Below are positions 13,047 through 53,446 of a DNA stretch of 64,000 bases, one piece after another (position 1 is the first letter of the stretch; each line of letters opens with the position of its first letter). The notes under the pieces were generated by a model that was not told the DNA's origin, made no database searches, and saw only the letters and a list, made by a program, of their open reading frames with translations. The stretch is taken from assembly GCA_049325415.1 (NCBI GenBank), contig JBMOLL010000053.1, forward strand, positions 3,684-67,683, in the 5' to 3' direction. The DNA is from Bacteroidota bacterium (GTDB lineage: Bacteria > Bacteroidota > Bacteroidia > Bacteroidales > GCA-2748055). A program made the translations under genes and the position numbers.

Positions 13047-13082
13047 TTTCCTATGAATTAAAATTTGCCATTTGATTCTCAT

Positions 13083-13160: not shown

Positions 13161-13199
13161 AAGTATGGGGCGAAGGTAGGAAAAGTTTTTGAGATAGGA

Positions 13200-19583: not shown

Positions 19584-20075
19584 TTACTCCGAGGCAAAGG
19601 AAAAGTGCTGCTGCATCATGATCCAGCGGCCGTCGCGCTTCTCCAGCACACCAGTCCAGCGCGTATTCTCCCAGCTGGCCGGCTGTCCCTTCCACTCATT
19701 GATGTCGTCGAGGAGGCAGTAGAACCAGGCCACCTCACCCGACGCAGAAAAACGGATGTCCAGGTCGCTGATCGCGTACCGGATGGCCCTGAAGTCTTCG
19801 TGCATCCAGAATGCTTCAGCCTTCCTGAATTCATCGAAGCCTTTCACCACCCGTTTGCCCGGGTCGACCTCCAGATAGGTCGAATCGTTGCAGATCACGG
19901 AATACAGCAGATCCAGGTCCTTGGTGGCGGCCCAGCCGATACTGCTGCGGATGGCCTGTTCAACAGCTTCCTTATCGCCGGCCCCGGCCGGGGTCCCCTT
20001 TTCTCTGTCACAGGAAAGGGAAAAAAGGATCAGCGGAATCAACAGGCATAAAAAAAGCGGACGTGTTGTCATCAT
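19584..20075 (-). CDS. NTF2-like (SnoaL/DUF4440-type) lipoprotein, putative
   Basis: 163 aa with lipobox LFSLSCD. Size and pattern (W...GVLEKRDGRWIMMQQHFS) fit a cone-shaped NTF2-like fold. The functional call is weak. Confidence 0.45.
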   Translation of the reverse strand: MMTTRPLFLCLLIPLILFSLSCDREKGTPAGAGDKEAVEQAIRSSIGWAATKDLDLLYSVICNDSTYLEVDPGKRVVKGFDEFRKAEAFWMHEDFRAIRYAISDLDIRFSASGEVAWFYCLLDDINEWKGQPASWENTRWTGVLEKRDGRWIMMQQHFSFASE

Positions 20076-20177
20076 CTTCTCATTTAAAGAAGCATAAAAG
20101 TTACGCTATTTTTGACATGAAACCTGAATGCCACCGAAAAAATGAATACCGGAAAAAGAGCCGGAAAGAAAAAACCT

Positions 20178-22067
20178 TCAGCGGCAATTCTCGCAATAGC
20201 TGTCCTTCAACTCCGGATTTTCGAGTAACTGAAAAGTTACACCACCTGACATGTTCGAATCGAACAGTCTGCAGAAGCGCTGGGGATTTATGTTCCAGGC
20301 ATTGAAAAGGATCTTCCTGAACTCCTGAACCTGAAACATCCTTTCGTCTACAAGGGTAAGATTGAGATAATAAAAAAGCAGGTCTTCGGACACGTCAATC
20401 TCACCGGCCCGCTTTTCGATGATCCGGATCGCCCAGTCGGTTCTTGCATAGGACGAAAAATACTGGGCAAGATTCAGGTAATCATCGTCACTTAAAGGAA
20501 TATGTTTATAGGCAACGTAAATATAATTGAGTGCCTTGTTCTTACTGATATAGTCCCTGTTTCTCATGTGGTACTCACTCATCAGAATCTCATAATTAAT
20601 GAGCATCCTGTCCACAAGGGCCTCAGGTATCCCACCCTTTTGAAGATCCTGGATCTCTTCTCTGAATGCAGAGAGATCTATAAGATCCTCCCTCATGATC
20701 CACATTCTGAATTTCAGTGAGCACAGGTTATATCGCAGATGAAAATCTCCGGGCATCAGGTCAAGAAGCTCTTCCAGTTCCCTGTATGCCTGAAATACAT
20801 CCGAAACATCAGTCAGGTATCTGAAAACAGCATTCCTGAACAGAAGCAGACTGTATTCCGACCTCCGTGGAACTTCCAGCCTGTCAATGGCTGACGCCGG
20901 CAATTCGTGATCGGTGATCTTCTCAAAGACCGCTTTCTGGATCTCAACGGCCCGTTCCAGGTTTTTCTCCTCCAGTGACTGGGGGAATAAGTGAAAGAGC
21001 TCTTCTGTATCCCGACTGAACTTATGCTCTTTCTTCCGGAGGTCCAGAACGATGATCGCTTTCCGGTGCTTTCTCAGGATGGGCTCCAGTTCTTCCGCCA
21101 CCTTCTTCTCGGCCAGTACAGCTTTAATTTCCTCCTTGCCCCAATCGGCAAGAAACGAATACCTGGTGTATATGATATCGCTGAAAAAGTCAACCCAGTT
21201 CTCCGAAGCATGAATCTCCTGAATGATGGAGGGATCCTGATACGACTGAAGGGCCGAAACAATGTTCTGCGCCCTCTCCTCCTGCAGTTCCCTGTTTCTT
21301 TCGGTGGTACCTTCTACGCTTGAATACGCCCTGACAGTTATCTTTTTGATATCATAATCCGTGAGCTTCAGTGAATCATATAGCGGCCGGATATCTTCCG
21401 GTGAGTAATCGGATTTGTTTTGTTCAAAAGGGATCTCAAAGCGAAGTGTTTTTGATAAAAAGCCGGTCCCATAAGTTTCATCCCACTTTGAAAAGGCTTT
21501 CCTGACATAGGTCAGTGTATCAAAATAGAAACCCATATCAAGCAAATCCCAGCGATAGCTTTCCAGGTGATAATAGGAAATATAATAACTGATCGAATTA
21601 TTCCTGATCAATGCAAGGTTCAACTCAATTTCACTGTGAAGGAGTTCCTTCGGAATGCTTCCCAGCGGAATAAGAAGCTGACTGTCTGGCAGAATTTTCA
21701 TATTCGCTTCCATATCCGGCAAAAAAACCGGTTCCAGAAGCCTGCCCTTTATCGGAGTGTTGTAATATTCAGGAATACTGTCACAATCGTATTGTTCCTT
21801 CCTGAGTATATCCACGGCAAGACCGTCGGCAGGTGAAGTAAAGAATTTCGTGAACCAGGAAGCATCGGTCAGACTGAACAGGATTTGTCCGTTAAGATCA
21901 CAGTGGATGCTAAGCATTACTTCCTCGGGTTTCTGTTCCATCAGTTTCAGCAAGGCAGTGTTCTCACTGCTTCCCGGACGCGCAATTTTCAGACCGAAAT
22001 AGTCCTGGGCCAACAAACTGCCGGTGGATAGTGCCAGAAAAATAACAAACGCAAAAAGTCTGGTCAT
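20178..22067 (-). CDS. hypothetical secreted protein
   Basis: ORF trimmed to ATG 22067, giving signal peptide MTRLFAFVIFLALSTGSLLAQD. 629 aa. An internal OmpA-like fragment motif (VRAYSSVEGTTERNRELQEERAQNI) is the only feature I see. Confidence 0.5.
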   Translation of the reverse strand: MTRLFAFVIFLALSTGSLLAQDYFGLKIARPGSSENTALLKLMEQKPEEVMLSIHCDLNGQILFSLTDASWFTKFFTSPADGLAVDILRKEQYDCDSIPEYYNTPIKGRLLEPVFLPDMEANMKILPDSQLLIPLGSIPKELLHSEIELNLALIRNNSISYYISYYHLESYRWDLLDMGFYFDTLTYVRKAFSKWDETYGTGFLSKTLRFEIPFEQNKSDYSPEDIRPLYDSLKLTDYDIKKITVRAYSSVEGTTERNRELQEERAQNIVSALQSYQDPSIIQEIHASENWVDFFSDIIYTRYSFLADWGKEEIKAVLAEKKVAEELEPILRKHRKAIIVLDLRKKEHKFSRDTEELFHLFPQSLEEKNLERAVEIQKAVFEKITDHELPASAIDRLEVPRRSEYSLLLFRNAVFRYLTDVSDVFQAYRELEELLDLMPGDFHLRYNLCSLKFRMWIMREDLIDLSAFREEIQDLQKGGIPEALVDRMLINYEILMSEYHMRNRDYISKNKALNYIYVAYKHIPLSDDDYLNLAQYFSSYARTDWAIRIIEKRAGEIDVSEDLLFYYLNLTLVDERMFQVQEFRKILFNAWNINPQRFCRLFDSNMSGGVTFQLLENPELKDSYCENCR

Positions 22068-22204
22068 TAACAATCCTGTTTTATATACTGAAATGAACAG
22101 ATCCAACTTTACAACGACCTCTCTGGAAGTAAAACCGAAAAAAGACTGAGCTGTACTCCGCTATCGTTCCGCACCGGGACATGATCAACAGATCAGCCCT
22201 GAAC

Positions 22205-22768
22205 TCAGGAAATATGGATCCGCCCCGAAATCAGCAGGTAGAAAATGGCAATAAAAATAATGCTGAGGGTAATAAATGCCAGGTATTTGTTTCGCTGGAT
22301 CTTTTTCATACTGTCTTCCAGCTCGGGGTTGAGTAGCAAAACCTTGTTCTTGATGAAACCTGTCAGTTCATCGTCGCCCATCATTGCCCTCGTCTTGCGG
22401 TCGGGAAGATAGCCCAGCTTTTTTTCAAGACCCGTGGAACGGTCCTTGTACCGGATGGTGATCAGCGAAGGACTGGAAAGATCGAATTTTGAAATCCACA
22501 GAATGTCCCCGTATTCAATGGTTTTCTTCCCGTCCTTGTTCAGGATGTGGACCCCGCTGTCGTCGGCTTCGATACTTTTAAGCCGGAAAGGCATTTGCAG
22601 GGAGAAGACAAAGATCCAGACAAACAGGAAGATGGTGGCGACCATGTATTCGAGGGACAGTTCGCCTGCCTTATTCCCGAAAACATAGATGAAATAAACC
22701 ATCAGGGCCAGGGTCATGGCCGGGTAAAGGTACTTGTAGATGTTGGTGGAGGAGGAACTTTTAAACAT
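22205..22768 (-). CDS. hypothetical membrane protein
   Basis: 187 aa. Two N-terminal TM helices, a soluble middle domain and a C-terminal TM helix. No recognisable motif. Confidence 0.5.
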   Translation of the reverse strand: MFKSSSSTNIYKYLYPAMTLALMVYFIYVFGNKAGELSLEYMVATIFLFVWIFVFSLQMPFRLKSIEADDSGVHILNKDGKKTIEYGDILWISKFDLSSPSLITIRYKDRSTGLEKKLGYLPDRKTRAMMGDDELTGFIKNKVLLLNPELEDSMKKIQRNKYLAFITLSIIFIAIFYLLISGRIHIS

Positions 22769-28328: not shown

Positions 28329-29075
28329 TCACTCCACATAAATCATCTTCCTCGTCATCCCCCCGTCGATCACGATATTGGTGCCGGTGATAAAATCGTT
28401 GCCGGGTTCCGACAGGTAGAGGCAGGCGCGGGCGATATCGGAGGGCTCACCCACACGTTGTGCCCAGTGCTGCCGGTGGTCGGCTTCCGTAAGCCGGTTC
28501 CGGTCGCCGGTCTCAATCCAGCCCGGACTGATGCAGTTGACCCGGATGTGATCCGGTGCGAACGAAGCGGCCAGGGCATGGGTGAGGGCCAGGATGCCGC
28601 CCTTGCTGGCCGCGTAGGCTTCGGAGTGCGGCTCCGACTGCAGGGCACGGGTGGAGGCGATATTGATGATGGCGCCACCCCCGCCGCTCCGCATCAGCTT
28701 TGCCGCCTCCCTCGAACACAAAAAGACGCTCCGCAGGTTGGTATGGATCACGTTCTCCCATTCCTCCACGCTGAGCTCGTAGGGCGATTTCCAGACCGAC
28801 AGCCCGGCGTTGTTTACGAGGACATCGACACGGCCGAAGCGGCGGCCGGCTTTCTCCATAAGGTTCACGATCTGAGCCGGCTCCCGCACGTCGGTGGGTA
28901 TGAAGAGGGCCTTCCCCCCTGCCCCGGTGATCTCCTCCTCCGTCGATTTACCGGCCGCGGGATCCCTTTCGGCAATAAGCACCGTGGCACCTTTCTCCGC
29001 ATAGGCCAGGGCCACGGCTCTTCCGATGCCCTTTCCGGCACCGGTGATGATGACGATCTGTTGACTTTGACTCAT
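28329..29075 (-). CDS. SDR family oxidoreductase
   Basis: ORF trimmed to ATG 29075 (MSQSQQIVIITGAGKGIGRAVA = TGxxxGxG). Contains the NNAG motif and the catalytic YAASKGG (YxxxK). Confidence 0.85.
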   Translation of the reverse strand: MSQSQQIVIITGAGKGIGRAVALAYAEKGATVLIAERDPAAGKSTEEEITGAGGKALFIPTDVREPAQIVNLMEKAGRRFGRVDVLVNNAGLSVWKSPYELSVEEWENVIHTNLRSVFLCSREAAKLMRSGGGGAIINIASTRALQSEPHSEAYAASKGGILALTHALAASFAPDHIRVNCISPGWIETGDRNRLTEADHRQHWAQRVGEPSDIARACLYLSEPGNDFITGTNIVIDGGMTRKMIYVE

Positions 29076-29191
29076 TGGCTGGTGTTTCAGGCGTTCCCCT
29101 GCAGCAGGGAACGGAAGTAAAGATAGGAAAAAGCGGCAAGGAGAGAATGCACCGTCCGGCAGAACGCACTCACGTTGATTGCAACCTGCTT

Positions 29192-31473: not shown

Positions 31474-31695
31474 ATTTCTGGTCGGGTTTATGTGTTTATT
31501 GCTTGCACGCATAATTCTCAATCCGAAAATAAAGATAACAGATCATTGAATACTATCTACCGATTTTACAATTTATTGAGATAAGCAGTTCGCATGGATA
31601 AATGCCGGAATTGTATTACAACCCCTCACTGTTTCGATTGCTATCGGAATTCAGGCCGCTCAGCGTCCTGTTTATTAGTTACTGTAAATTATTTA

Positions 31696-32322
31696 TTATC
31701 TGCAGTTTAAATTATAGTATCTAACCATCGATTCCAAATCATTTTTGCGAAATTCTTTACTTTCAATTTTTTCTACAAGTGAAGGACAATCGCTGAAATA
31801 ATCAATCATATCTTTTTTAAATGACAATCCTACAGGTCTCATTAATTCTCCATTTTCTTTTTGTAAAATATATTTCTCAACGCTATAGGAATATCCACCG
31901 GTACTCATCCCTGTGAAAGAATTGTATGTTCCGCCCGAATGTTGTGTATAATAATAACTGAACAATTTTAGTTTGCCATCCATTTCCAATTTGAGAAAGA
32001 TATTTGTGCTCATTGAAAAAATATTCCCTAATCCGATCGAATTAAACCTTGATAGCATCCGTACATTTTCATATTCATATTTGAACTGTATCTCTTTTGC
32101 ATTATCTAGTTTAAGTACGATTTTTCTCCCGGCTGAATCAAAATATTTTACCTTATACTGTAATTTCTCATAGTTTGGCTCCTGTGTGAAAAAATTTATC
32201 GGAATATTAAAAGTCACATCAATTGTATCATCCGCAAAAAATATTTTGCCTTCAATCTTCTTAGCTTCAAGTTTGAAAGTCAAGACTAATCCAATTGTAA
32301 TCAGAATAACTATTTTTTTCAT
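31696..32322 (-). CDS. hypothetical secreted protein
   Basis: 208 aa with signal peptide MKKIVILITIGLVLTFKLEA. No recognisable motif. Confidence 0.55.
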   Translation of the reverse strand: MKKIVILITIGLVLTFKLEAKKIEGKIFFADDTIDVTFNIPINFFTQEPNYEKLQYKVKYFDSAGRKIVLKLDNAKEIQFKYEYENVRMLSRFNSIGLGNIFSMSTNIFLKLEMDGKLKLFSYYYTQHSGGTYNSFTGMSTGGYSYSVEKYILQKENGELMRPVGLSFKKDMIDYFSDCPSLVEKIESKEFRKNDLESMVRYYNLNCR

Positions 32323-32520
32323 GTATAGAAATTTAAAGTGTTAATTTTGAATGCTTTGGGATGTCCTTTTATGGTGGTTAACGGTCTGCCAATATGGGTA
32401 GGCGTGGTTCTCGGAGCTCGTTCGTATCCACCGTGGAAAACGCTGAAATGGAGGTGGAACATTGAATGCGACCACTAGCTCCAGCCTTACCTATATTGGC
32501 TGTTATCGGCTGGCAATCAT

Positions 32521-33333
32521 TCATTTATGTATTTTGTTTTTAATTTCTATCCACCGTTTTGTCCCAATCTCACTTATTTGTCTTTTTTTGGCAAAATCAA
32601 ATTCAATCCATGCTTTATGTGGATTTTCAGGAATTAATTTACCGTTTTTTATTTTGTCTTTAAGTGTATTATATGCTTCATGAAATCGCTTGTCATTCTT
32701 TGCAATATCATAAAATGACAAAACATAAACATAGTAAAACAGATTATATCGTAAAAATGGGTACTCTATTTTCATAAAAGTTGAACCAATCCCGAAGTTA
32801 CATGGGCCAATCGGCTGGCGAATTTCCCAATGTTGCAATAAAAAATCTACTCCTTTATTCAATTTGTCTATGTCGTCAGCAGAATTATCTCTAAATCGAA
32901 AAGCATCCAATACATATAAAGTTGTTCCAGGGTTGCTTGCATCAGTCAGTGGAGATTTTCCAAGTTTTACAGTCGCACATCTCCAACCACCATCATTCCA
33001 TTGAGTGTCAAGCATCCATTTGTAGCTTGTCTCAATCCTTATATCATTTTTTAAACCAAGTCTCCCTAATCCTGCTATTATCCGAGCTGTCAAACAAGGA
33101 AGTTTTGAGCTTTTGGGTGAATATTTAAAACAACCTTCCGGAGTTTGGTACGAGAAGATAAAATCAACGGTATCTGCAATCTCTGAATTATCATTAATCG
33201 AATAACCAATCTCTCCAAGAACTGATAAAGTATCAATGGTCGAAAATCCAAAGGGAGCGTGAATGTCTCCATCTGCTCTTGACCAAAATTGTCCACCATT
33301 ATCGTTTTGTCTTTGTAATATTTTCTCAATCAT
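32521..33333 (-). CDS. prenyltransferase/terpene-cyclase-like alpha-alpha toroid repeat protein (island paralogue)
   Basis: 270 aa. Q/N-x-x-DGGW-type repeats: QRQNDNGGQFW, DTQWNDGGWRC. It is colinear with 46488-47312: SNPGTTL, DGGW[RK]C, FPF[LF]RYNLFYYVY[VT]LSFY, ENPN/ENPH. Confidence 0.65.
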   Translation of the reverse strand: MIEKILQRQNDNGGQFWSRADGDIHAPFGFSTIDTLSVLGEIGYSINDNSEIADTVDFIFSYQTPEGCFKYSPKSSKLPCLTARIIAGLGRLGLKNDIRIETSYKWMLDTQWNDGGWRCATVKLGKSPLTDASNPGTTLYVLDAFRFRDNSADDIDKLNKGVDFLLQHWEIRQPIGPCNFGIGSTFMKIEYPFLRYNLFYYVYVLSFYDIAKNDKRFHEAYNTLKDKIKNGKLIPENPHKAWIEFDFAKKRQISEIGTKRWIEIKNKIHK

Positions 33334-33373
33334 TAGCTTGTTGTCATTATTGCAGGGTGTCCGTTTTGCTTGC

Positions 33374-33540
33374 CGCTAACTCCTTTATATGATCTCACCC
33401 CCCCTCCCACCTGCACCTCTCTCCCCCTCGCCGAGGTGATATTGAGTGCCTCATTCTCTTAACTGGCTTTTACCGGGTTGAGACCGCAATACAAGTTAAC
33501 CTTTAAGGGAAATATAAACAAGACTTTGCAGTAAAATATA
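33374..33540. repeat. island repeat A, copy 1
   Basis: CGCTAACTCCTTTATATGATCTCACCCCCCCTCCCACCTGC...GATATTGAGTGCCTC...CTTTTACCGGGTTGAGACCGCAATACAAGTTAACCTTTAAGGGAAATATAAACAAG. It is near-identical to 37041-37190 and lies 40 nt upstream of the start codon at 33333. Confidence 0.9.
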
Positions 33541-33735
33541 CGGGCGGAACGGCTGGCGATTCCGGGCTAAACGCCTTTTGAACCCACCTGGTAAAGGACA
33601 ATAACGAAGGTAACAAACTGTATAGCTGAAAATACCCCCCAGGCCAGCATTTTTTGCCAGGCTATTTTCTGCCCCGGGTTTAGTAATTGTTATACCATAA
33701 TGCAAATACCAACATTTAATCGTCTGCAGTACCGG

Positions 33736-34533
33736 TTACCGGTAGCTGGATTCTTTCGTGTCTTCATTTACAAATTTCAACCGAATCCCGATACCTTTAT
33801 GCTTTGTGAGCTCTTTCAGACGACTCCTTTCGTACCATTTCAGATCACGGTATTCCTTTTGAAAATGAATAAAGGACAGATCATTTAAATATCGTTCATA
33901 TTCCACATAATAACTGTCCAGCAAGCTGATGAGATCCTGATAATTGTTTTTGCTGTTGAGCCGGATCTGCAGGTACAAGGAATCAGATCCGATGATCGCT
34001 CCCAGTTTTTCCTGTAAAGCCTTGCCGCTGTATACAGAGTCATCAATGAATATGCTTTGACCACAGATTGTAAAGTCCAGTATATCCGGGCTTAAGGTAT
34101 CAAACTTAAAAAAAAAGGAGGGCAACTCCAGAGGCGGAAGAGTATATACAATGCCGGCACTGTCGTCAATTTCGTTTGTCAGAAAGACTATCCCCGGAAA
34201 TCCTCCATCCCTGAAGGCGTTGAGAATGGAATCGATGGTGGCATAATTCACTGATTTCGGACAAATAAAAGCTATCCTGAAAAAGTTACTTCCATTATAG
34301 CATTCGATGTAGTTAAAAATGTCGGCGCGAAAACTTTTTAAATCCTTAATTTCTTTACCGTTACAACTTAATCTCCCGTTTTCGTATTTCACGAAGGCAT
34401 ATCGCAGCGAGAGATATGATCCAATCCTTTCGGCATGTGCGGAAGATGGCAATTCCAGGCTTTTCTTACACGAAACAGAAATAATCAGCAAAAGGATCAT
34501 CAGAACTGCCAGAGATCTATTCGTTGTTTTCAT
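33736..34533 (-). CDS. hypothetical lipoprotein
   Basis: 265 aa with lipobox LLIISVSCKK. No recognisable motif. Confidence 0.55.
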   Translation of the reverse strand: MKTTNRSLAVLMILLLIISVSCKKSLELPSSAHAERIGSYLSLRYAFVKYENGRLSCNGKEIKDLKSFRADIFNYIECYNGSNFFRIAFICPKSVNYATIDSILNAFRDGGFPGIVFLTNEIDDSAGIVYTLPPLELPSFFFKFDTLSPDILDFTICGQSIFIDDSVYSGKALQEKLGAIIGSDSLYLQIRLNSKNNYQDLISLLDSYYVEYERYLNDLSFIHFQKEYRDLKWYERSRLKELTKHKGIGIRLKFVNEDTKESSYR

Positions 34534-34562
34534 ATGCCGGGCGGTTTACTTTTTTAATAATC

Positions 34563-34720
34563 TCCTCCCCACCTAACTCCCCAAGGAATTTTAATATTTC
34601 ATCGAATGCCATGTTGCGGGATGAGTTGGGGCGTACCTTTTCATACCCATGTCTGTTTCATTATATGTACGAAATTTCATTATAGACTGTAAACCAGCAT
34701 TGAACAGGACAATTTATTAT
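34563..34720. repeat. island repeat B, copy 1
   Basis: 158 bp. It aligns without indels to 35263-35420, an offset of exactly 700 bp. I counted 18 mismatches by hand. Confidence 0.9.
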
Positions 34721-34734
34721 TCCCGGTGGTTAAT

Positions 34735-35040
34735 TTATTTCTTCAAAGCTTTGGAATTTGAAAGAAGCCGTGAGCTATGATGAACTGTTAGAATATGAAT
34801 CGAATTCTCGTCAACAATTCTATATACTATCCTGTAACTCCCTCTGATTATTTGACGGAATGCTTCATCCTCAAATTCAGGAACCATAGGCCCTGCTTTT
34901 GGATGTTCTTCAAGAATATCAACACTTTCGAAAAGTTCAAGAACAGTTATCTCTGCATAACGCACAGAATCTTTAGCGATATAATCACCAATATCATTTA
35001 AATCATTGATAGCGTTGTCGGTCCAGACTATTTTAACCAT
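34735..35040 (-). CDS. type II toxin-antitoxin system RelE/ParE family toxin
   Basis: 101 aa. The pattern IVWTDNAINDLNDIGDYIAKDS...AGPMVPEF....FRQIIRGSYRIVYRIVDENSIHILTVHHSSR is typical of ParE/RelE. Confidence 0.8.
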   Translation of the reverse strand: MVKIVWTDNAINDLNDIGDYIAKDSVRYAEITVLELFESVDILEEHPKAGPMVPEFEDEAFRQIIRGSYRIVYRIVDENSIHILTVHHSSRLLSNSKALKK

Positions 35041-35216
35041 TTTCCAAGCTTTTGTTTAGCTTCTTCCTTGGTATTTGTATTTCCATTTAATGAATCCGAC
35101 AAACCTTTTTGGACTTTTTCAACAAAGATAATATGGTCAATTACCTGATCAATTGTAAGATTTTCAGGTAGTTTATCCATGGAATTTATCAATTGAGTCT
35201 TTGTAATCATTGTCAT
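35028..35216 (-). CDS. putative antitoxin of the RelE/ParE pair
   Basis: 62 aa. It overlaps the toxin start by 13 nt and is in the usual antitoxin-first order. No strong motif. Confidence 0.6.
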   Translation of the reverse strand: MTMITKTQLINSMDKLPENLTIDQVIDHIIFVEKVQKGLSDSLNGNTNTKEEAKQKLGKWLK

Positions 35217-35262
35217 TGTGTTTCCTCAAATATACAAAATCAACGACTTAATATCAAAGAAC

Positions 35263-35420
35263 TCCTACCCACCTAACTCCCCCTGGAATATTAATATTTC
35301 ATCGAATGACATTTTGCGGGATGAGTTGGGGCTTACCTTTTCATACCCATGTCTGTTTCATTAAAAGAACAAAATTTCATTATAGACCGTACACCGGCAT
35401 TGCACAGGACCAATTGTTAT
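35263..35420. repeat. island repeat B, copy 2
   Basis: Direct repeat of 34563-34720. See copy 1. Confidence 0.9.
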
Positions 35421-35443
35421 CGGCAGGCGTTTGAACTCCGGGA

Positions 35444-35857
35444 TCATTCAATTAAGACCTTGTGTTCAATGATTGAACTATCCCTGCTAATAAAATTCAG
35501 TGAGTATTGACCTTTCACCCATGTTTTAAATTCATATGATAATACTTTTACAGTTGGAACTGTTAAACATATTGTCTCTTCTTCCAATGCTCCAAATGCT
35601 TTTATATTAACTGTTTTGCCATTGGTTACTACCATAAAATCAGTGATATAATTGCAATCATTTGGTACCGGACAATAAACATCGAATGAAATTACTTTGC
35701 CTGTAGTACCCGTTGAATCTCCAATTACTTTACTGATATACCATTGATCGAGTCCTATAGGAATTTCGCTTGAATATTTATCACACCCAAAACTAAAAAG
35801 CAATATTACAATTAAGCTAAACAGGGGGCTGAAAATTTGCATTTTAATCGTTTTCAT
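35444..35857 (-). CDS. hypothetical small lipoprotein
   Basis: 137 aa with lipobox LLFSFGCDK. Confidence 0.55.
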   Translation of the reverse strand: MKTIKMQIFSPLFSLIVILLFSFGCDKYSSEIPIGLDQWYISKVIGDSTGTTGKVISFDVYCPVPNDCNYITDFMVVTNGKTVNIKAFGALEEETICLTVPTVKVLSYEFKTWVKGQYSLNFISRDSSIIEHKVLIE

Positions 35858-36036
35858 ACTTATGTAACTTAATTCGTAATGGTATCAATCGCTTACCGCT
35901 AACGGTCCGACGGTATGGACTGCGCCGACCGTTGAAGCATTATACTTTTGTATTTAGGGTTATATATAAATATACGATTTACTTTCTTTTTATCGGTAAA
36001 ACAGGCGTTGGCTATACCGTGCTTAGGTTCTGAAAA

Positions 36037-36972
36037 TTAATTGCATATTACAAAACTGAAATCAGCCAAATTGTTATCAACTTCTACACTTGAAGGAAAA
36101 GGCAATTCCCATACACATATAGTTACAAGACTCGGCAAGAAATAAAGTGATAATTTCTCGAGATCTCTGCTCTGCGAGATATCTATTTCGTTAACATCAA
36201 AATATGAAACAGTCAATTCTTTTAATTCACTACAATTCGACAAATCCAATTCGGTGATATTGACCTGTGTGCCACCTACTAATAATTCCTTTAAATGAAT
36301 ATTCCTTGAGAAATCAATATTTGTAAGTGGAGCACCTATCTTTAGGATTTCTAAATTGATATTATTCGTAATATCCAATTCAGTTAATGCATAAGTCAAC
36401 ATTTCAAAACTATACAAGTTTATATTTGTCGAGAGATCAATGTTGGTAATATTTGTAAATCCGATGTTTAGATCTCGCAGATTCTTCAAGCCAATAATAT
36501 TAAGTGTATCAATCTCATTCAAACAACAATTTATATATTCCAATTTGATATTATGAGATAGATCAATTGTCCCTTTTATACCACTGTCATAACACTTTAA
36601 ATATTTCAACTTGGGATTACTACTTAAATCTAAAGGTCCATTGATCTTATTATTACTGCAATCAAGGAAGACTAGGTTAACAAAGGCCTCAATGCCTGTC
36701 AAATCTTCAATTTTACCGAAGTTAGAAAGTACATTTTGGTGATCGAAAAGATTCAAACTGTCAACTACTTCTGCTTCCTGGAAACTGATTTCACAATCGC
36801 AATCTGAATCGTATCCAGCTGCAATCAGTTTTTCTTTAAAATTTGCATCTGGTATTGGCACATGGTATCCAGGGATAAATACAGTTCCTTCGGTGCATTT
36901 CTCTTCTAATTTCTCGCAAGAAATTATAGATAACAAAATGAAGATTATGTATGTACGAACCTTAATTCTCAT
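36037..36972 (-). CDS. leucine-rich repeat lipoprotein
   Basis: 311 aa with lipobox LLSIISCEK. The N-terminal cap IPDANFKEKLIAAGYD is followed by about nine ~22-aa LRRs of the form LxxLxLxxNxIxxIDLSxN. Confidence 0.8.
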   Translation of the reverse strand: MRIKVRTYIIFILLSIISCEKLEEKCTEGTVFIPGYHVPIPDANFKEKLIAAGYDSDCDCEISFQEAEVVDSLNLFDHQNVLSNFGKIEDLTGIEAFVNLVFLDCSNNKINGPLDLSSNPKLKYLKCYDSGIKGTIDLSHNIKLEYINCCLNEIDTLNIIGLKNLRDLNIGFTNITNIDLSTNINLYSFEMLTYALTELDITNNINLEILKIGAPLTNIDFSRNIHLKELLVGGTQVNITELDLSNCSELKELTVSYFDVNEIDISQSRDLEKLSLYFLPSLVTICVWELPFPSSVEVDNNLADFSFVICN

Positions 36973-37040
36973 TGTTGGGTTTTATGAATTAACGAACTTT
37001 TAGTTTTTTATATTGAACGAACTGGTGTGCAATTTTTTGA

Positions 37041-37190
37041 ACCTAACCTATTTATATGATCTCACCCCCTTCCCACCTGCATCGCTATCCCCCTCGACGG
37101 GGCGATATTGAGTGCCTCCTTCTCTCAACTGACTTTTACCGGGTTGAGACCGCAATACAAGTTAATCTTTAAGGGAAATATAAACAAGCC
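37041..37190. repeat. island repeat A, copy 2
   Basis: See copy 1. It lies 68 nt upstream of the LRR gene start (36972). Confidence 0.9.
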
Positions 37191-37584
37191 TTCCCGGGAA
37201 AAACTGCAGGAGGCGATGCGGGGGATTACGGGGAGGGACAGGAGGGAGGGGGCGGTTCTGACCAGCCAAAATCCAGAGAATGCAGGATTTACCCCAATAC
37301 ACCCTGGATTAGTTTTGATTTTTACAAAACACGGGAGGCCGAAGGCCTACAGACAGCAGAGGAGAAAAATAAAATGAGTACACTCCAGGTAATCCGGAAT
37401 AAATTAACCGGGAGAGCTTTTGCTGTTGGTAAACGCCAGACCCCTTATGTCGGTCTGAGTAAATTTGCAGCATAATTTTTTCTAAAAAATTTGGTTTTGC
37501 CATAGAACAGTTTTAGCTGCTGCCGTGCTGTTTCTCTGCAAACATAGGGCTCCATGTTTGCTCAGCTGCTTGCATAAGCGGTAG

Positions 37585-38352
37585 TCATGATGCACTATAT
37601 CTTGCAATTGCTACGCTGATGTTATCAATGCCACCACGCCTATTTGCAAGTGAAATTAAGTCGTTCGCTGTTTTGTAAATATTGCCCTTTACTGTTTTTA
37701 TAATCTCTTTCTCGTCAACCATACCATATAAACCATCACTACAAAGCATTAATGTTTCATCATCTATTTCTTGCTCGAAAATATCAGGTGTAACAGTTTC
37801 GGATAGGCCAAGTGCCTTAGTCAAAATATTTCTTCGTGGATGATTGATAGCTTGTTCTTTAGTGATTATTTTATTGTCCAACATTACTTGAACGGCTGAA
37901 TGATCTTTGGTAATTTGTCGGAGTGATTTATTAGGATTAATTATATATGCTCTTGAATCGCCAACATTAACAATATATATGTGATTGTCAACAATAATTG
38001 CACCAACTAAAGTTGTTCCTATATTTCCTTGTTGATTTTCTGATATTGCCCAAACCTCTTTATTTGCATCTTTTACGGCTTTAGTCAGAACATTTTCAAA
38101 TTTTATTGTGTCATTAATTGATGTGTAATAAAAAATGCTTTCAGCAACTGATTCAATAAATTTTTTTGCAGCAACTTCAGAAGCAACTTCTCCTTTTTTA
38201 AGTCCACCCATACCGTCAGCAACAACAAGAATTCCATAGTTGACTTCGTTTCTAAAACTTTGTGAATTTAAAATTAATGACGCAACACTATCTTGATTGG
38301 AAGTTCTCTCCTTGCCAATGTCTGTTTTCGTATAAAGTCTAATTGGTAGCAT
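37585..38352 (-). CDS. PP2C-family Ser/Thr phosphatase (catalytic domain only)
   Basis: 255 aa. Motifs: TDIGKERTSNQD, VVADGMGG, GTT, NVGDSR, LCSDGL, GGIDNIS. Confidence 0.9.
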   Translation of the reverse strand: MLPIRLYTKTDIGKERTSNQDSVASLILNSQSFRNEVNYGILVVADGMGGLKKGEVASEVAAKKFIESVAESIFYYTSINDTIKFENVLTKAVKDANKEVWAISENQQGNIGTTLVGAIIVDNHIYIVNVGDSRAYIINPNKSLRQITKDHSAVQVMLDNKIITKEQAINHPRRNILTKALGLSETVTPDIFEQEIDDETLMLCSDGLYGMVDEKEIIKTVKGNIYKTANDLISLANRRGGIDNISVAIARYSAS

Positions 38353-38374
38353 TCTCCTATTGTTAGAAATTTCA

Positions 38375-39202
38375 CTAAGATAATTTTTGATAAATTGGTT
38401 TTAGTGTGTCTATTACTTGTTGCATATTTTGGTATCTTTCGTTTACATTAATCTTAATCATCTTGAGAATTGCAGTATCAAGTTCGGAAGAAATAGATGA
38501 ATGATTTTGAGAGGATGGAGTTGGAACTGTATAACTCTGTCCGTTATTTTCATTAAAAACTTGAGGAAGTTTTCCTGTCATCATTTCATAAAATAATACA
38601 CCTAAAGAATAAATGTCCGTTCGCTGGTTTACTTCGCCAAATGCAGACGGATGAAACCATTGCTCAGGAGAACAATAGCCAGGAGTTCTCCACATTCCTG
38701 CAACTGTCAATGCGATTGATTCTCTGTTAACATCTTTACCGATTCCCCAATCAGCAACTTTAATTTGATTTTGTTCAGTAAATAAAAGATTAGCTGGCTT
38801 AATGTCTCTATGATAAATATTTTCTGAATGTGCCAATTTTAAAGCTTCTGCAACAGGAAGTATCACATTTCCCAATGTCCATTTTTGAGAAAAAAGTTTT
38901 TTTTGTTCAACAATAATGTTAACCATTTTGTCTTTTAAAGACCCACCAGCCATGTATTCCATTACATACCATGGACCATAATTTGGTGGATTGCCGTTTA
39001 TATTTGACTCGAAAATATTAACAACATGAGTATGATTTAGAGATTGAATAATTTTAATTTCTCTTTCAAATCGTTTTATCCTTTCAGGGTCTGGGCGCTT
39101 CAATTCCTTTAAAGCGCCTCTTTGCCCCGTCGCAGATTGAACTTCATATACCTTTCCGAATCCTCCTTCGTCAAGTATTCTTATAATATTCCAAGTTGCC
39201 AT
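38375..39202 (-). CDS. Hanks-type Ser/Thr protein kinase (catalytic domain only)
   Basis: 275 aa. Motifs: EGGFGKVY (P-loop), GALK (VAIK Lys), HRDIKPANLL, DWG in place of DFG, and CSPE (APE). Confidence 0.9.
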   Translation of the reverse strand: MATWNIIRILDEGGFGKVYEVQSATGQRGALKELKRPDPERIKRFEREIKIIQSLNHTHVVNIFESNINGNPPNYGPWYVMEYMAGGSLKDKMVNIIVEQKKLFSQKWTLGNVILPVAEALKLAHSENIYHRDIKPANLLFTEQNQIKVADWGIGKDVNRESIALTVAGMWRTPGYCSPEQWFHPSAFGEVNQRTDIYSLGVLFYEMMTGKLPQVFNENNGQSYTVPTPSSQNHSSISSELDTAILKMIKINVNERYQNMQQVIDTLKPIYQKLS

Positions 39203-39225
39203 GAGTAGTTAAATATTTATTGTGA

Positions 39226-39633
39226 TTAATTGTTTGTCATTTGTCTTACTTCGTTTGGGTTAACGAAGCCAGTAAGATGGTCTGTCTGTTTAATTTCTTT
39301 GTATCCCAAGTGTTTTGATATTTCATACAGCAAATTTAGAAAACGCATATCATATACTTTAGGGTCAAAAAGTGTTGAATTCTGACTCTCCCACAACTTT
39401 TCCTTTGCATCCATTATTTTTTTATCGTTATAAAAAATAACATCCATTATATTTAGAGCGTCCAAAATCTCATCATTCATTCTCATTTTTTTTCTTTGGG
39501 TTAGAAGCGTCAGAAATAGGTCTGTCTTTTGTCTCTTCCTTTCCCTTCTACTATTAATTACTAACGAAACTAGCATGGCAGACGTTGGCCCTGCAACAAT
39601 TGCACATATCGCTATAATTACTGGTGTCGTCAT
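39226..39633 (-). CDS. single-pass membrane protein with helical C-terminal domain (possibly DUF6680-like)
   Basis: 135 aa. An N-terminal TM helix (PVIIAICAIVAGPTSAMLVSLVI) is followed by the basic RRERKRQK and then helical blocks: LFLTLLTQRKK, ILDALNIMDVIFY, LLYEISKHLGY. The family assignment is from memory only. Confidence 0.5.
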   Translation of the reverse strand: MTTPVIIAICAIVAGPTSAMLVSLVINSRRERKRQKTDLFLTLLTQRKKMRMNDEILDALNIMDVIFYNDKKIMDAKEKLWESQNSTLFDPKVYDMRFLNLLYEISKHLGYKEIKQTDHLTGFVNPNEVRQMTNN

Positions 39634-39876
39634 TGTTTTATATATTACTTAACAAAGTTAAAAACTAAAACCTTCATTCCGTCCATATTTTTTGTTACAA
39701 TCATTTCATTTCTTTCAAATATTATAAAGTTAGCAGTGTTCTCCAACGGTTGCAGCAAACGTACCAGCGGTATTTGCAGTGCTGGTTTCAAAGCTCTTAC
39801 CTTTCAAACTGCTATTTGCTTCATTAATTCACAAAATTATAAGATCACTAGGACACCCGCATTGCTTATGACCGTG

Positions 39877-40767
39877 TTAGTGGCTGGTTTTCTTGCTTTC
39901 ATAAAAATCATCAGTATAAGAATAATGAATATTTTGTCCTGCTATATCTTCATTTAAATTGTATAATCTAGGTTTTATCTTATCGTCAATATAAAGCTTG
40001 TCATATTCATTTTTCAGCCATAGATATTTATTGTAGATGTTGGGATTTTCAAAACTATTATCTAGTCCATTAATAATAGTCTTTTTTACTCTAGTAAGAC
40101 CTATTTTTAGTCTTCTTTCGCTCATCTTTTTCCAAGATTGAAGAACCTCAAAATAAATCATTTGGTGGAATCCAACACAACCGTCACTAAAGCGCTTAAT
40201 GTATTGATGATAAGGGTATCTGTCTCTTTTTGTTGTAATTGGGTAATTTAAAAGCTTAAGCAATTTATCTGACAAAAGAATTCTTGGAAAACTAGCTGCT
40301 TTAGATTCTAGCTCATAAGCATCAATTAATCCTTGTCCAAATATTATCCCATTATCTAAATGTATGGTTCTTCCAGTTGTAATTCCACCTCTAAAAAGTA
40401 TTCCCTTTGTCATTAATCTAGCACCAACTAATGAAAGGTTTGCAATCAATGTTGATAATGTTTCATTAATTGTAGATTTATCATAGCCAACTGAAACCGC
40501 AATTGAATCTGAAAAAGAGGTACAAGCAGTTCTATTTGAGATGTCAAAATCTTCCAAATTTCTCTTTTGAGCATCCTCTTCTATTTCGATAAGTTGTAAA
40601 TCCCAATTTGAAGCATACTCTCTCTTTTTTAGAAAAACTAAAGAATCATAAATTAATTTTCTTGTGTCTGCATTTCTTTCTGATTTCTTTACAACTTCTT
40701 TGAAACCTAAAATATCAATGAATGCAACTAACCTTTCTTCATATATTATTTCATCATATGATTCCAT
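39877..40767 (-). CDS. stand-alone class-III nucleotidyl-cyclase/GGDEF-like palm-domain protein, function unknown
   Basis: 296 aa. Ordered motifs VAFIDILGF, TSFSDSIAVSV, ILFRGGITTG, GQGLIDAYELES, RILLS mirror the class III cyclase motifs FxD[IL]xGF, GDxxxA, RxG[IL]xxG and VNxAxRxE. The C-terminal ~100 aa have no recognisable motif. Confidence 0.6.
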   Translation of the reverse strand: MESYDEIIYEERLVAFIDILGFKEVVKKSERNADTRKLIYDSLVFLKKREYASNWDLQLIEIEEDAQKRNLEDFDISNRTACTSFSDSIAVSVGYDKSTINETLSTLIANLSLVGARLMTKGILFRGGITTGRTIHLDNGIIFGQGLIDAYELESKAASFPRILLSDKLLKLLNYPITTKRDRYPYHQYIKRFSDGCVGFHQMIYFEVLQSWKKMSERRLKIGLTRVKKTIINGLDNSFENPNIYNKYLWLKNEYDKLYIDDKIKPRLYNLNEDIAGQNIHYSYTDDFYESKKTSH

Positions 40768-40805
40768 ATCAGCTTATTTTTATTATCATCGTGGTGTCAA
40801 AATTA

Positions 40806-40963
40806 CCGCTAACCTATATTTATAAGTGCCCCCAACTCCCCACTCCACCCCCCAAAGGCGATATCCCAAACACTTCCTGATCTTTTCTGGCTGGCCGGGT
40901 TGAAGCGGCTATACAAGTTAGAACTTAACAAAAACAAAAACAAGCCTTTACAGCAAAATTACG
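40806..40963. repeat. island repeat A, copy 3 (diverged, at island/backbone junction)
   Basis: CCGCTAACCTATATTTATAAGTGCCCCCAACTCCCCACTCCACCCC...GGCGATAT...CCGGGTTGAAGCGGCTATACAAGTTAGAACTTAACAAAAACAAAAACAAGCCTTTACAGCAAAAT. It lies 38 nt upstream of the start at 40767. Confidence 0.75.
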
Positions 40964-46487: not shown

Positions 46488-47312
46488 CTATTCCAGGTTT
46501 TTGATGATTTCCGCATACCTGGCTGTTGCCAGATCGCTGGCTTCCATTTTCCTGCAAAATGAAAACGCCTCCAACTGCCGGTTGGGATTTTCCACGATGA
46601 TCCGTCCCTCTTTCATCCTGGATCTCAGAAGATCCAGAGCCTCCAGGAAACGACGGTCGGAACGGGCGGTTTCATAAAACGACAGGGTGTAAACATAGTA
46701 AAACAGGTTATACCGGAAGAAGGGGAATTCCACCTTCATGAAGAGGCTGCCCATCCCGTAATGACAGGGTCCCAGGGGGATACGGGTGTCCCAGTGGGCC
46801 AGCAGGAATTCCACGGCCGGGCGGAGGCGGGGCTCACTGTGAAGCAAGGGCGTATAGCGAAAGGCATCGAGCGCTTCCAGGGTAGTGCCGGGGTTGGAGA
46901 ATACGGTTTCCGGGCCCCGGCCGAATTTGTAGGTAGAGCACTTCCAGCCCCCATCGTCGTGCTGAATATCGAGCAGGTGCTGAAAGGTCCTTTTCAGCCG
47001 GTCATCATCGGCATAACCCAGCCGGCACAGCACACGGGCTGCCCCGGCGGTATGACAGGGGTAGATGGCCCCGCCGGGTGAGAGCCTGAACCGTCCGTCG
47101 TCACGCCAGGTGCCCAGGATCAGTCCGGCGGTTTCTTTCATGAGGGCCGTGCCGGTCTGTCCCAGTTCGGTCAGGATCATGGCACTGCCGAGGGTGGAGA
47201 AAACGCCGCCTTTGACGAGCCTTTTGTCGGGGGTGGTCCACAGATCGGCCCCCTGGTCGAAACGATGGTCCAGGACCTTTTGAATATCGGAAGCGTAGCT
47301 GTTGTCGGTCAT
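46488..47312 (-). CDS. prenyltransferase/terpene-cyclase-like alpha-alpha toroid repeat protein (backbone paralogue)
   Basis: 274 aa. Contains DIQHDDGGWKC and WRDDGRF repeats. It is colinear with the island gene 32521-33333. Confidence 0.65.
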   Translation of the reverse strand: MTDNSYASDIQKVLDHRFDQGADLWTTPDKRLVKGGVFSTLGSAMILTELGQTGTALMKETAGLILGTWRDDGRFRLSPGGAIYPCHTAGAARVLCRLGYADDDRLKRTFQHLLDIQHDDGGWKCSTYKFGRGPETVFSNPGTTLEALDAFRYTPLLHSEPRLRPAVEFLLAHWDTRIPLGPCHYGMGSLFMKVEFPFFRYNLFYYVYTLSFYETARSDRRFLEALDLLRSRMKEGRIIVENPNRQLEAFSFCRKMEASDLATARYAEIIKNLE

Positions 47313-51735: not shown

Positions 51736-53167
51736 CCGGTTTCAGGCCCAGTTCGGCCGCTTTCTGCAGTGTAAGATCGAGCGCGGCATCGTAGTCGTTG
51801 GGGATGATCCCGTCGAGGATGGCATCCTTGATGGCGGTCTTGATGATCCCGATCTCGCGGCAGGGCGGGATGCCAAAGATATGCTGGATATCGTCGCCGG
51901 TTACCGGTGGCTGGAAATTACGGATATGATCGCGTTCCTCCAGTTCCCTGAGTTTTTCCCTGACCAGGGCAAAATTATCAAGGTGTTTCCTGACGGTCTT
52001 TTCATTCTTCGAGGTGATGTCGGCCTCGCAGAGGGTCATCAGTTCGTCGAGTTCATCGCCGGCATCGAAAAGCAGGCGGCGAATGGCGGAGTCGGTCACC
52101 ACATCCTGCGAAAGCACGATCGGCCGCAGATGAAGAAGCACCATTTTCTGAACGTATTTCATCGGGTCGCCCAGGGGCAGCTTCATCCTTTTAAACAGAC
52201 CGGGGATCATTTTTGCCCCGATAAACTCATGGGCGTGAAAGGTCCATCCATTGCCCGGCTCGAAACGCCGGGTGACGGGTTTGGCCACATCGTGCAGGAG
52301 AGCGGACCAGCGCAGCCAGAGATTATCTGAGTTTTTACAGACATTGTCGAGCACCTCGATCGTATGCAGGAAATTGTCCTTGTGGGCGATGCCGTCTTTT
52401 TTCTCGATCCCTTTCATGGCATGAAGCTCGGGAAGGATCAGTTCCAGAAGCCCCGTTTTGTCGAGCAGGAGGAAACCTTCCGAGGGCCTGGGGGTCATGA
52501 TGATCTTGTTCAGTTCATCGGTGATCCGTTCCTGCGACACGATCCGGATCCTGTCCCGCTTCTCCTTCATGCCTTTCTGGGTTTCGGGGGATAGGGTAAA
52601 GCCCAGGCGGGTGGCAAAGCGGATCCCCCGAAGCATCCGCAGGGGATCGTCGGAAAAGGTCAGGTGCGGATCGAGCGGGGTGCGGATGATCCCCTTCTCC
52701 AGGTCCGACAGCCCGTTAAAGGGATCGGAAAGCCTGGCAAAGCGATCGGGATGGAGCGAGAGCGCCAGAGCGTTGATGGTGAAATCGCGCCGTCGCTGGT
52801 CATCTTCCAGACTGCCGTTCTCCACGGCGGGTTTGCGCGAATCGGCACGGTACGACTCTTTCCGGGCCCCGACAAACTCGACATCCAGTTCGCCGCAACG
52901 CAGCATGGCCGTCCCGTAATTCTTGAAGACACTCAGGGGAGCCTTTCCTCCCAGGCGTTTCTGGACTTTCTTAGCCAGTTCGATGCCGCTGCCCGTGGTA
53001 ACGATATCGATATCCTTTGCCAGGGAAGGGTCGTTTCCCAGCAGCAGATCGCGCACATAACCGCCGATCACGGCGATCTCCCGGTCCTCTTCGCCCGCGA
53101 TATCACGCAGTATGCCGAAAACACGGTGAGTCAGGAAAGCATCGTATGGTCCGTTTCGAAGTATCAC
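51713..53167 (-). CDS. CCA-adding tRNA nucleotidyltransferase / poly(A) polymerase family protein with HD domain
   Basis: 484 aa. Motifs: GGYVRDLLLG...DIDIV, RRDFTINAL, and HD motif LLHDVAKP. Confidence 0.85.
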   Translation of the reverse strand: MILRNGPYDAFLTHRVFGILRDIAGEEDREIAVIGGYVRDLLLGNDPSLAKDIDIVTTGSGIELAKKVQKRLGGKAPLSVFKNYGTAMLRCGELDVEFVGARKESYRADSRKPAVENGSLEDDQRRRDFTINALALSLHPDRFARLSDPFNGLSDLEKGIIRTPLDPHLTFSDDPLRMLRGIRFATRLGFTLSPETQKGMKEKRDRIRIVSQERITDELNKIIMTPRPSEGFLLLDKTGLLELILPELHAMKGIEKKDGIAHKDNFLHTIEVLDNVCKNSDNLWLRWSALLHDVAKPVTRRFEPGNGWTFHAHEFIGAKMIPGLFKRMKLPLGDPMKYVQKMVLLHLRPIVLSQDVVTDSAIRRLLFDAGDELDELMTLCEADITSKNEKTVRKHLDNFALVREKLRELEERDHIRNFQPPVTGDDIQHIFGIPPCREIGIIKTAIKDAILDGIIPNDYDAALDLTLQKAAELGLKPVNLPGKH

Positions 53168-53446
53168 GCTGCAAAAATAAATATTCCCTGCGATAATGGA
53201 AAAGCAAGTTCCGGGGAATGTTGGGCGCTAGCTACCATTGTTGTCTTAAAACGGAAGAAATAAATGAGAAAAGTTAAAGTTAGTCATGGTCAACTGGCCC
53301 GGCTTATCCACAATAATTACTTGCAGGATGGATTTTTTCTCTTCTTCGGGCGGTTGGTCCAATTGTTTGAACTTTAATATTAGTTCGGCAATCTGAAACT
53401 GAGTAATTTGCTATAACTGTATCTCACTTTTCCCTATCTTAGTATA

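Follow-up and report, generated by a model that had tools for sequence, protein, structure and literature searches.

The stretch of DNA analyzed here (the window) covers 64,000 nucleotides (nt) of contig JBMOLL010000053.1 (C53), positions 3,684 to 67,683, from the Bacteroidota bacterium assembly GCA_049325415.1, and its central feature is an AT-rich island at 31522-40805 made of genes separated by structured, repeated spacers. All 11 open reading frames (ORFs) of the island lie on the minus strand, and its G+C content is 35.3%, compared with 49.4% for the whole 4.42-Mb, 147-contig assembly. The 5-kb windows of this genome average a G+C of 0.495 with a standard deviation (SD) of 0.030, which places the island ca. 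4.6 SD low, and the sliding profile falls from ca. 0.50-0.52 to 0.32-0.41 between 31.5 and 40.8 kb, with recovery within one step on each side. Its tetranucleotide distance from the genome mean is 0.516, against 0.136 ± 0.047 for genome windows of the same length (n = 1105; z = 8.1), and a single further genome window, located on contig C134, deviates as much. These values and the ORF inventory bear out an earlier note, made from the sequence by eye, which had described 11 co-oriented minus-strand genes and a sharp shift in composition at ca. 31.52 and 40.8 kb. Following the direction of transcription, the genes are as follows (aa, amino acids).

39877-40767, minus strand: 296-aa protein whose predicted model has a class III nucleotidyl-cyclase fold; gene of putative cassette 1.
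39226-39633, minus strand: DUF6680 protein with one transmembrane segment (family match); putative cassette 2.
38375-39202, minus strand: Hanks-type Ser/Thr kinase (family match); putative cassette 2.
37585-38352, minus strand: PP2C phosphatase of the Stp1/IreP type (232 bits); putative cassette 2.
37585-39633, minus strand: the three genes of putative cassette 2 together; the identical trio is one cassette in other arrays, with homologous ends.
36037-36972, minus strand: leucine-rich repeat (LRR) lipoprotein of 311 aa (family match); cassette gene.
35444-35857, minus strand: 137-aa lipoprotein (lipobox FSFGC, no family match); cassette gene.
34735-35216, minus strand: cassette with a ParD-like antitoxin and a ParE toxin, as two overlapping ORFs.
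33736-34533, minus strand: 265-aa lipoprotein (lipobox in the translation); cassette gene.
32521-33333, minus strand: 270-aa prenyltransferase/squalene-cyclase-like protein (family match); cassette gene.
31696-32322, minus strand: 208-aa secreted protein (signal peptide in the translation); last cassette gene.

Family matches agreed with the gene contents first proposed, namely the kinase, the PP2C phosphatase, the ParE pair, the LRR lipoprotein, and the prenyltransferase-like paralogue, which is 41% identical to a backbone gene product encoded at 46506-47285 of the window. ParE matched PF05016 (E 2e-18) and its partner, a 62-aa ORF, overlaps it by 13 nt; a small overlapping ORF upstream of ParE is the arrangement predicted for a ParDE type II toxin-antitoxin system. 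The kinase scored well with the PD-T4-6 hidden Markov models (E 4.5e-52), as any Hanks kinase may, and is here paired with PP2C and DUF6680. The two non-LRR lipoproteins and the secreted protein, read from their lipoboxes and signal peptides, belong to no known family; scans with Pfam, NCBIfam, and PADLOC matched no immunity family among the cargo and left four small proteins without a family. Taken together, the cargo resembles a set of conflict and surface genes. The suggestion that the region is of the defense or surface-variation type is plausible as far as annotation goes (the PD-T4-6 kinase, the neighbors of the cyclase-fold gene elsewhere, ParDE, and three lipoproteins).

None of the usual means of transfer is encoded at the island. 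We found no tRNA in the 64-kb window, no transposase or integrase among the island genes, no conjugation or phage genes or terminal direct repeat at the island, and no Rfam family inside it, so that the integrase, tRNA or att target, and flanking direct repeats of a classical genomic island are all lacking. A search for a cognate integrase elsewhere in the genome, which the earlier note had recommended, covered the whole assembly and recovered neither IntI (nothing above the TIGR02249 cut-off) nor any other island-linked recombinase; two Xer-like genes, on contigs C71 and C114, are the only tyrosine recombinase genes that it contains. The statement that no obvious repeat is visible holds for terminal direct repeats but fails internally, as the island is full of structured sites.

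This site family was recognized because a 158-nt direct repeat (D2) of the island and the spacer at 39.8 kb were compared with copies on other contigs; well-preserved relatives of both are found on C89, C12, and C92. Each site, ca. 133 nt long, is framed by a 5′ box with AAC at its end and a 3′ box that opens with GTT, and between them are spacers and an imperfect 18-bp stem with one bulged base and a loop (consensus nnnTAAC-AAG-CGGT(C)ATATGCAATGCGGGTG, loop, ACCCGCACTGCATATACCGC-CGTCC-GTTAnnn). A typical island spacer reads, in the coding direction, stop codon, box ending in AAC, variable region, box starting with GTTAG, and start codon. The sites and repeats of the island, including the three copies of a second repeat (repeat A), are listed in the same order as the genes.

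40807-40963, minus strand: repeat A copy 3 at the right junction, a weak copy (repeat search, 40895-40959) ending in GTTAGCG (40813-40807).
39752-39883, minus strand: S1, the best-preserved attC-like site (model R2, 93 bits; model R3, 85 bits).
37400-37565, minus strand: S2, degenerate, with two candidate 5′ boxes and an uncertain 3′ box; not detected by R3.
37041-37232, minus strand: repeat A copy 2, without an ORF (repeat search, 37065-37232), ending in GTTAGGT (37047-37041).
35895-36029, minus strand: S3, 5′ box ACCTAAG and 3′ box GTTAGCG (R3, 66.5 bits, E 1e-13; R2, E 5.5e-4).
35271-35423, minus strand: S4, upstream copy of the 158-nt repeat (R3 match 35295-35423, 42.4 bits).
34571-34735, minus strand: S5, downstream copy of the 158-nt repeat (R3 match 34587-34723, 45.1 bits).
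33374-33566, minus strand: repeat A copy 1 (repeat search, 33399-33566), ending in GTTAGCG (33380-33374).
32374-32509, minus strand: S7, 5′ box CGATAAC and 3′ box GTTAACC (R3, 45.3 bits, E 1.5e-8; R2, E 0.15).
31522-31695, minus strand: left junction, an AT-rich spacer with a weak inverted repeat and no recognizable site.

Two covariance models were used, R2, built from four copies all located on contigs other than that of the window, and R3, built from 52 sites taken mostly from two related genomes. With filters off, R3 gave exactly five matches with E < 1e-7 in the whole 64-kb window, all of them on the minus strand, intergenic, and inside the island, where they span 7.5 kb; the next best match had an E of 1.3. 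R2 recovered the same five sites, four with E ≤ 5.5e-4 and S7 with E 0.15. S7 is outside the R3 training alignment, in which the other four are included, and forms the cleanest hairpin, long and imperfect, from CGATAAC to GTTAACC (ΔG, −21 kcal/mol). S1 has CACTAAC as its 5′ box, which overlaps the stop of the cyclase-fold gene, and GTTTGCT (39760-39754) as its 3′ box. S4 (CGATAAC, GTTAGGT) and S5 (AATTAAC, GTTAGGT) flank ParDE, the former with a decayed 3′ arm carrying an insert of ca. 35 nt.

The sites proved to be conserved in structure rather than in sequence. Across the 52 aligned sites, 88% of the cells were paired, compared with 25 to 45% when the partner was slid, and 19 of 22 stem pairs vary on both sides. 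Double changes were found in 253 cells, against 86 ± 8 in shuffled alignments, none of which (0/500) reached such a number.

Consecutive sites are linked by a second kind of complementarity. On C89, the end of the first site (GTTATGC) and the start of the next (GCATAAC) are complementary at 7/7 positions, while the boxes of one site share only TAAC. In the related genomes G011 and G017, a 3′ box of an array and the following 5′ box are complementary at 3.09 of the 4 outer positions on average (29 of 45 consecutive site pairs are perfect), compared with 1.53 of 4 for the two boxes within a site (permutation P < 1e-4), and the low cross-site scores fall mostly at large gaps, where a site probably went undetected. 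The island follows the same rule, with 19/24 outer positions complementary across cassettes and 8/20 within sites when counted by hand. The individual pairs of 3′ box and following 5′ box are given below.

Repeat A copy 3 (GTTAGCG) to S1 (CACTAAC): 6/7.
S1 (GTTTGCT) to S2 candidate box AGCAAAC at 37562 (37562-37556): 7/7, a box picked by eye because it is complementary to the 3′ box of S1.
Repeat A copy 2 (GTTAGGT) to S3 (ACCTAAG): 6/7.
S3 (GTTAGCG) to S4 (CGATAAC): 6/7.
S4 (GTTAGGT) to S5 (AATTAAC): 5/7.
Repeat A copy 1 (GTTAGCG) to S7 (CGATAAC): 6/7.

Such pairing between neighboring sites would put the crossover inside the conserved GTT of the 3′ box or immediately behind it; every cassette is then a circularly permuted unit that brings its own site, as is the case in integrons. 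Thus, clustered structured sites and the cassette rule, the two features that characterize attC arrays and attC-site clusters without an integron-integrase (CALINs), are both present, as judged by R2 and R3. The box rule also excludes miniature inverted-repeat transposable elements (MITEs) and repetitive extragenic palindromes (REPs), since the two ends of such elements would match each other. This bears on the idea of a generic genomic island acquired in one piece, as a conjugative or prophage remnant whose repeats are unrelated REPs or MITEs. The sharp compositional boundaries would suit such an island, and at the sequence level repeats A and D2 are simple direct repeats. However, the mobility genes and terminal repeats of such elements are missing, the ends pair with the neighboring site instead of being self-complementary, and individual cassettes recur separately in other arrays (see below), all of which makes this explanation very unlikely.

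Repeat A may be a diverged site or a promoter-carrying module. It lies 38 to 68 nt upstream of three unrelated genes, it measures ca. 128 nt from its TTAAC box to its GTTAG box, which is the length class of the sites, and, judging from the box sequences, the 3′ ends of all three copies appear to behave as crossover boxes. A further location is C134:7502-7559, and no copy was found in 90 related genomes. Folded alone, repeats A and D2 give weak, non-hairpin structures. The proposal that the right junction coincides with a diverged copy of repeat A could be refined, as the AT-rich DNA and the first cassette start right after the GTTAGCG box of copy 3 at 40813-40807. A G+C-rich module (CCCTCCTGTCCCTCCCC and neighbors) occurs at 37233-37260 of the window and at C67:27600-27700 and 29000-29100, beside sites in the spacers of different AT-rich islands. 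The motif CCGATARC, noted earlier, was discarded as a marker, as it showed no enrichment (380 occurrences genome-wide compared with ca. 266 expected, seven of them in low-G+C DNA).

The island is one of several in this assembly. About 10 further AT-rich, one-strand islands were found, several of them at contig ends (including C134:1-13200, C89:45000-52957, C67:24000-29000, C78:1-8400, C147:1-8400, C12:1000-8000, and C101:1-6300), and the genome-wide R3 matches are confined to C53, C89, C12, C92, C134, and C78, always in islands of this kind. The genome is a mosaic of orphan cassette arrays. An assembly or binning artifact, in which a foreign fragment was joined into C53, could be invoked for a metagenome assembly of 147 contigs. 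However, two chimeric joins would be needed, because the island sits inside a 78-kb contig with DNA of normal composition on both sides, and the ca. 10 similar islands, several of which share its site family, speak against it as well; we regard it as extremely improbable.

Beyond this genome, R2 matches showed the site family to be present in 34 of the 91 genomes examined from the host's family, across 13 of 14 genera and frequently in same-strand clusters. The arrays of these relatives have 30 to 40% G+C, while the adjoining flanks have 48 to 50%. Two of them, in G011 (contig C6) and G017 (contig C8), comprise at least 40 kb of one-strand genes each, with 30 to 36% G+C and many small gene pairs, and the G011 array has one site per ca. 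1 kb. At the head of the G017 array, on the strand of the cassettes and 0.9 kb upstream of the first site, there is a 529-aa tyrosine recombinase. These recombinases are Xer-like proteins of ca. 530 aa with an N-terminal extension of ca. 250 aa; that of G017 scores below the cut-offs of both TIGR02249 (180 against 265 bits) and the XerA/integron-integrase model (219 against 220 bits), and in an alignment it lacks the long insertion of the true IntI of the host's family. Six further genomes of the family have a homologue at most 8 kb upstream of sites and on the same strand.

A search with five aligned full-length members, covering one genome per species, then yielded at least 446 relatives in Bacteroidales, Cytophagales, Chitinophaga, Solitalea, Flavobacteriales, and others. 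When R3 was run on the best 80 recombinase-centered loci, ca. 21 of them contained a total of 54 sites, every one (54/54) downstream of the recombinase and on its strand, with none in the upstream flanks. Many contigs stop just past the recombinase gene, as would be expected if a repeat-rich array followed. As this family has no member in the host assembly, the island is an orphan array. This agrees with the original statement that the mobility mechanism is not encoded locally, and from the sites it can now be named, tentatively, as cassette-by-cassette site-specific recombination at attC-like sites.

A different cassette system exists in the same family. Canonical IntI above the TIGR02249 cut-off is found in 20 of the 91 genomes, all of one genus, divergent from AT-rich co-oriented arrays with very uniform attC sites (GTAGAAC-AAATC-ACTAAAGCCGACCG...CGGCGGCTTAGT-TCCACC-GTTCTAC). 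Examples are L030 (G077:C1:38401-58400), L031, and L032, with arrays of 13 to 20 kb or more. Some IntI-bearing genomes also carry the Xer-like recombinase and the other site type, so that two cassette systems coexist there. The IntI arrays make it necessary to consider that the island is a classical CALIN, i.e., a decayed integron with ordinary attC sites whose canonical IntI was lost or left unassembled. Both the architecture of the sites and the cassette rule match attC, and metagenome-assembled genomes (MAGs) often lose such regions. However, model R1, built from the canonical attC sites of the relatives' IntI integrons, matches nothing in the window or the genome; conversely, R3 has no match in five IntI arrays, and all 54 sites described above follow an Xer-like recombinase without the IntI insertion. 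In addition, IntI is absent from the near-complete G011 and G017 in spite of their 40-kb arrays. A classical CALIN is accordingly unlikely, and the IntI/attC and the Xer-like/133-nt-site systems appear to be separate.

Evidence that the cassettes move as units came from their homologues. The 296-aa protein, which has no sequence-family match in the library scans, has more than 650 homologues with 57 to 82% identity in several Bacteroidota orders. In the three contexts seen, it is a single gene near a type I restriction system, AbiE, Schlafen-like, or Thoeris-type Toll/interleukin-1 receptor (TIR) genes and never adjoins the kinase module; in two unrelated contigs, R3 sites lie on both sides of it (in one case as part of a four-site array with TIR genes), and the boxes that bound it pair in accordance with the cassette rule. 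The fold assigned in the earlier note is supported by an AlphaFold2 model (predicted local distance difference test, 70 overall and 80 to 90 over the first 180 residues), whose top 41 Foldseek matches in the PDB are all class III adenylyl/guanylyl cyclase domains (1ybu_B, E 1.6e-4, template modeling score of 0.62 on the target), and the protein has two invariant aspartates, D18 and D87. We consider this gene a candidate single-gene defense or signaling cassette without a named family.

Other metagenomic arrays contain the DUF6680-kinase-PP2C trio as one unit, delimited by a third site type whose boxes, GTTAGCTG ahead of the trio and CAGCTAAC behind it, are complementary at 8/8 positions. In the window, the ends of the trio cassette are still recognizable as homologues of these, namely GTTTGCTGCAACC at 39760 and GGCAGCAGCTAAAAC at 37519-37510; the latter position is that of the second candidate 5′ box of S2 (CAGCTAAAAC, 37519-37510), which is homologous to the 5′ box that this cassette has in other arrays. 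Cassettes seem to be exchanged among arrays of different site types. The third type (CAGCTAAC-AGCACACACC...GGTGTGTGC-GGAAC-GTTnnnn) obeys the box rule in a Joint Genome Institute (JGI) metagenome contig (L153:5785-12139) and bounds cassettes including the kinase trio, AbiGi, Zeta toxin, and HigB. A Logan contig of 2156 bp (L156) consists of the trio alone, with a DUF6680 protein 96% identical to that of the window, and ends inside the 5′ box region of the cassette; therefore, a close relative of the cassette exists in another sample. A pair homologous to ParDE (49% and 32% identity) adjoins a same-type site in the array of G011.

From these data, the single cyclase/kinase/PP2C cluster first described has to be divided into two cassettes, which S1 separates and which recur apart elsewhere, and the proposed four-gene signaling system is probably two independent units. 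The description of the island as a horizontally acquired accessory region, on the other hand, holds, given its foreign composition and the presence of its units in other organisms and contexts. The opposite view, an ancestral native locus (for instance, one for surface variation) with a composition due to selection or silencing, could appeal to the several lipoproteins encoded and to the lack of a close relative showing the absence of the island. However, homologues of the cassette genes occupy unrelated neighborhoods in several orders at the identities given above, the flanking genes have no orthologues adjoining such cassette genes in the host's family, and the composition is that of the shared cassette pool; we find a native origin hardly credible.

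We conclude, with a probability of roughly 85%, that the island is an orphan, recombinase-less array of about eight mobile cassettes belonging to an integron-like gene-capture system of Bacteroidota. Each cassette comprises one to three genes plus one site of ca. 133 nt. An Xer-like recombinase would excise and insert them, probably on folded single strands, and those of the island would have been laid down by such an enzyme, later lost or acting in trans. The array now seems frozen and decaying, with S2, S4, and S5 degenerate and no R3 match following the gene for the 265-aa lipoprotein or at the left junction. The low G+C content would be the signature of a shared cassette pool and not of the host.

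Several observations weigh against this conclusion. A detectable site is present in just five of the ca. 10 intergenic regions, and S4 and S5 fit the model chiefly in the 5′ half and the loop. As four of the window sites contributed to training R3, independent support comes only from S7 and the R2 results, and repeat A, with three copies in this genome only, gives no clean hairpin. The searches for an empty site were negative: exact look-ups of the flanking proteins gave no record, the right-flank gene has no orthologue in the host's family, and a metagenome scan returned only remote tetratricopeptide repeat (TPR) matches. Neither kind of recombinase is present in the assembly, so that the array may never have been active in this lineage, and the recombination of the sites by the Xer-like enzyme is a role predicted from gene neighborhood.

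Among the systems described to date, the gut Bacteroidales clusters termed rAID-1 (recombinase-associated acquired interbacterial defense) come closest (Ross et al. 2019, bioRxiv 10.1101/471110). rAID-1 is defined by a 5′ XerD-like recombinase and co-directional genes of ≤41% G+C with intergenic repeats, called “reminiscent of integrons,” and was found in 226 of 423 Bacteroidales genomes, with orphan immunity genes as cargo; it is said to be restricted to that order, with close recombinase homologues in Bacteroidales only. The passages of that report consulted here give sequence motifs and contain no hairpin structure, box-complementarity rule, or cassette boundaries. The platform of the relatives fits all four features, the recombinases being set side by side by description only, and the Xer-like family includes members from Bacteroidales MAGs with downstream sites. 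The island shares with rAID-1 the repetitive intergenic sequences and the one-strand genes of low G+C (11 at 35.3%, where two or more at ≤41% are asked for). However, it lacks a recombinase, both locally and in the assembly (rAID-1 requires ≥44% identity to BF9343_RS08045), its host belongs to another family, and the Pfam, NCBIfam, and PADLOC scans assigned none of its genes to a known immunity family. The B. fragilis rAID-1 recombinase was not among the top 120 homologues of the Xer-like family.

The resemblance to sedentary chromosomal integrons and CALINs (Cury et al. 2016, PMC4889954; Neron et al. 2022, PMC9024848) extends to the co-oriented, mostly promoterless-looking cassettes, the toxin-antitoxin genes, the skewed composition, and the sites themselves (AAC/GTT boxes, imperfect stem, bulged base, and pairing of the 3′ box with the next 5′ box); orphan arrays without an integrase, like this one, are also known among integrons (PMC4889954, PMC9024848). 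In contrast to a complete integron, the assembly has no IntI above the TIGR02249 cut-off, and in contrast to integrons in general, the associated recombinase scores below the IntI cut-off, lacks the IntI insertion, is co-oriented instead of divergent, and has the N-terminal extension of ca. 250 aa. The sites are longer, uniform at ca. 133 nt, with a partly conserved loop, and are absent from the true IntI arrays of the family. Compact candidate defense genes carried as cassettes are likewise found in the IntI integrons of Vibrio (Darracq et al. 2024, 10.1101/2024.07.02.601686), where they were tested with phages, whereas here defense is read from the genes. Surveys with IntegronFinder found integrons almost absent from Bacteroidetes; a review lists Bacteroidetes among the phyla with detected integrons. 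In the open-access literature searched, no publication gave the hairpin structure of the site, the box rule, the phylum distribution, or non-immunity cargo.

We lean, with more caution, toward a broader proposal, that Bacteroidota have their own phylum-wide integron lineage of which rAID-1 is one branch. In this lineage, a co-oriented Xer-like recombinase with a distinct N-terminal domain and without the domain considered essential for integron integrases would capture genes via hairpins of ca. 133 nt from an AT-rich pool shared across orders, with candidate phage defense, toxin-antitoxin, surface, and immunity genes as cargo, and orphan arrays would be its fossils.

The cassette reading explains how an island without mobility genes could have arrived, and the cassette rule cuts it into functional units, splitting the cyclase-fold gene from the kinase/PP2C module. 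The island also adds a clear case for integron-style capture in Bacteroidota by a recombinase without the IntI-specific domain. Confirmation at the bench would widen the definition of integrons, and the system would offer a natural test of the protein features needed for structure-specific recombination. Software looking for IntI and classical attC sites may leave such arrays unreported as integrons; therefore, a large, probably overlooked cassette pool could be opened to the mining of defense and immunity genes.

Elsewhere in the window, smaller dips in G+C, to 43 to 46%, occur at 20000-22500 and 53000-54500, neither of them with a site match. A thiamine pyrophosphate (TPP) riboswitch is located on the minus strand at 13068-13164 (Rfam RF00059, 61 bits).

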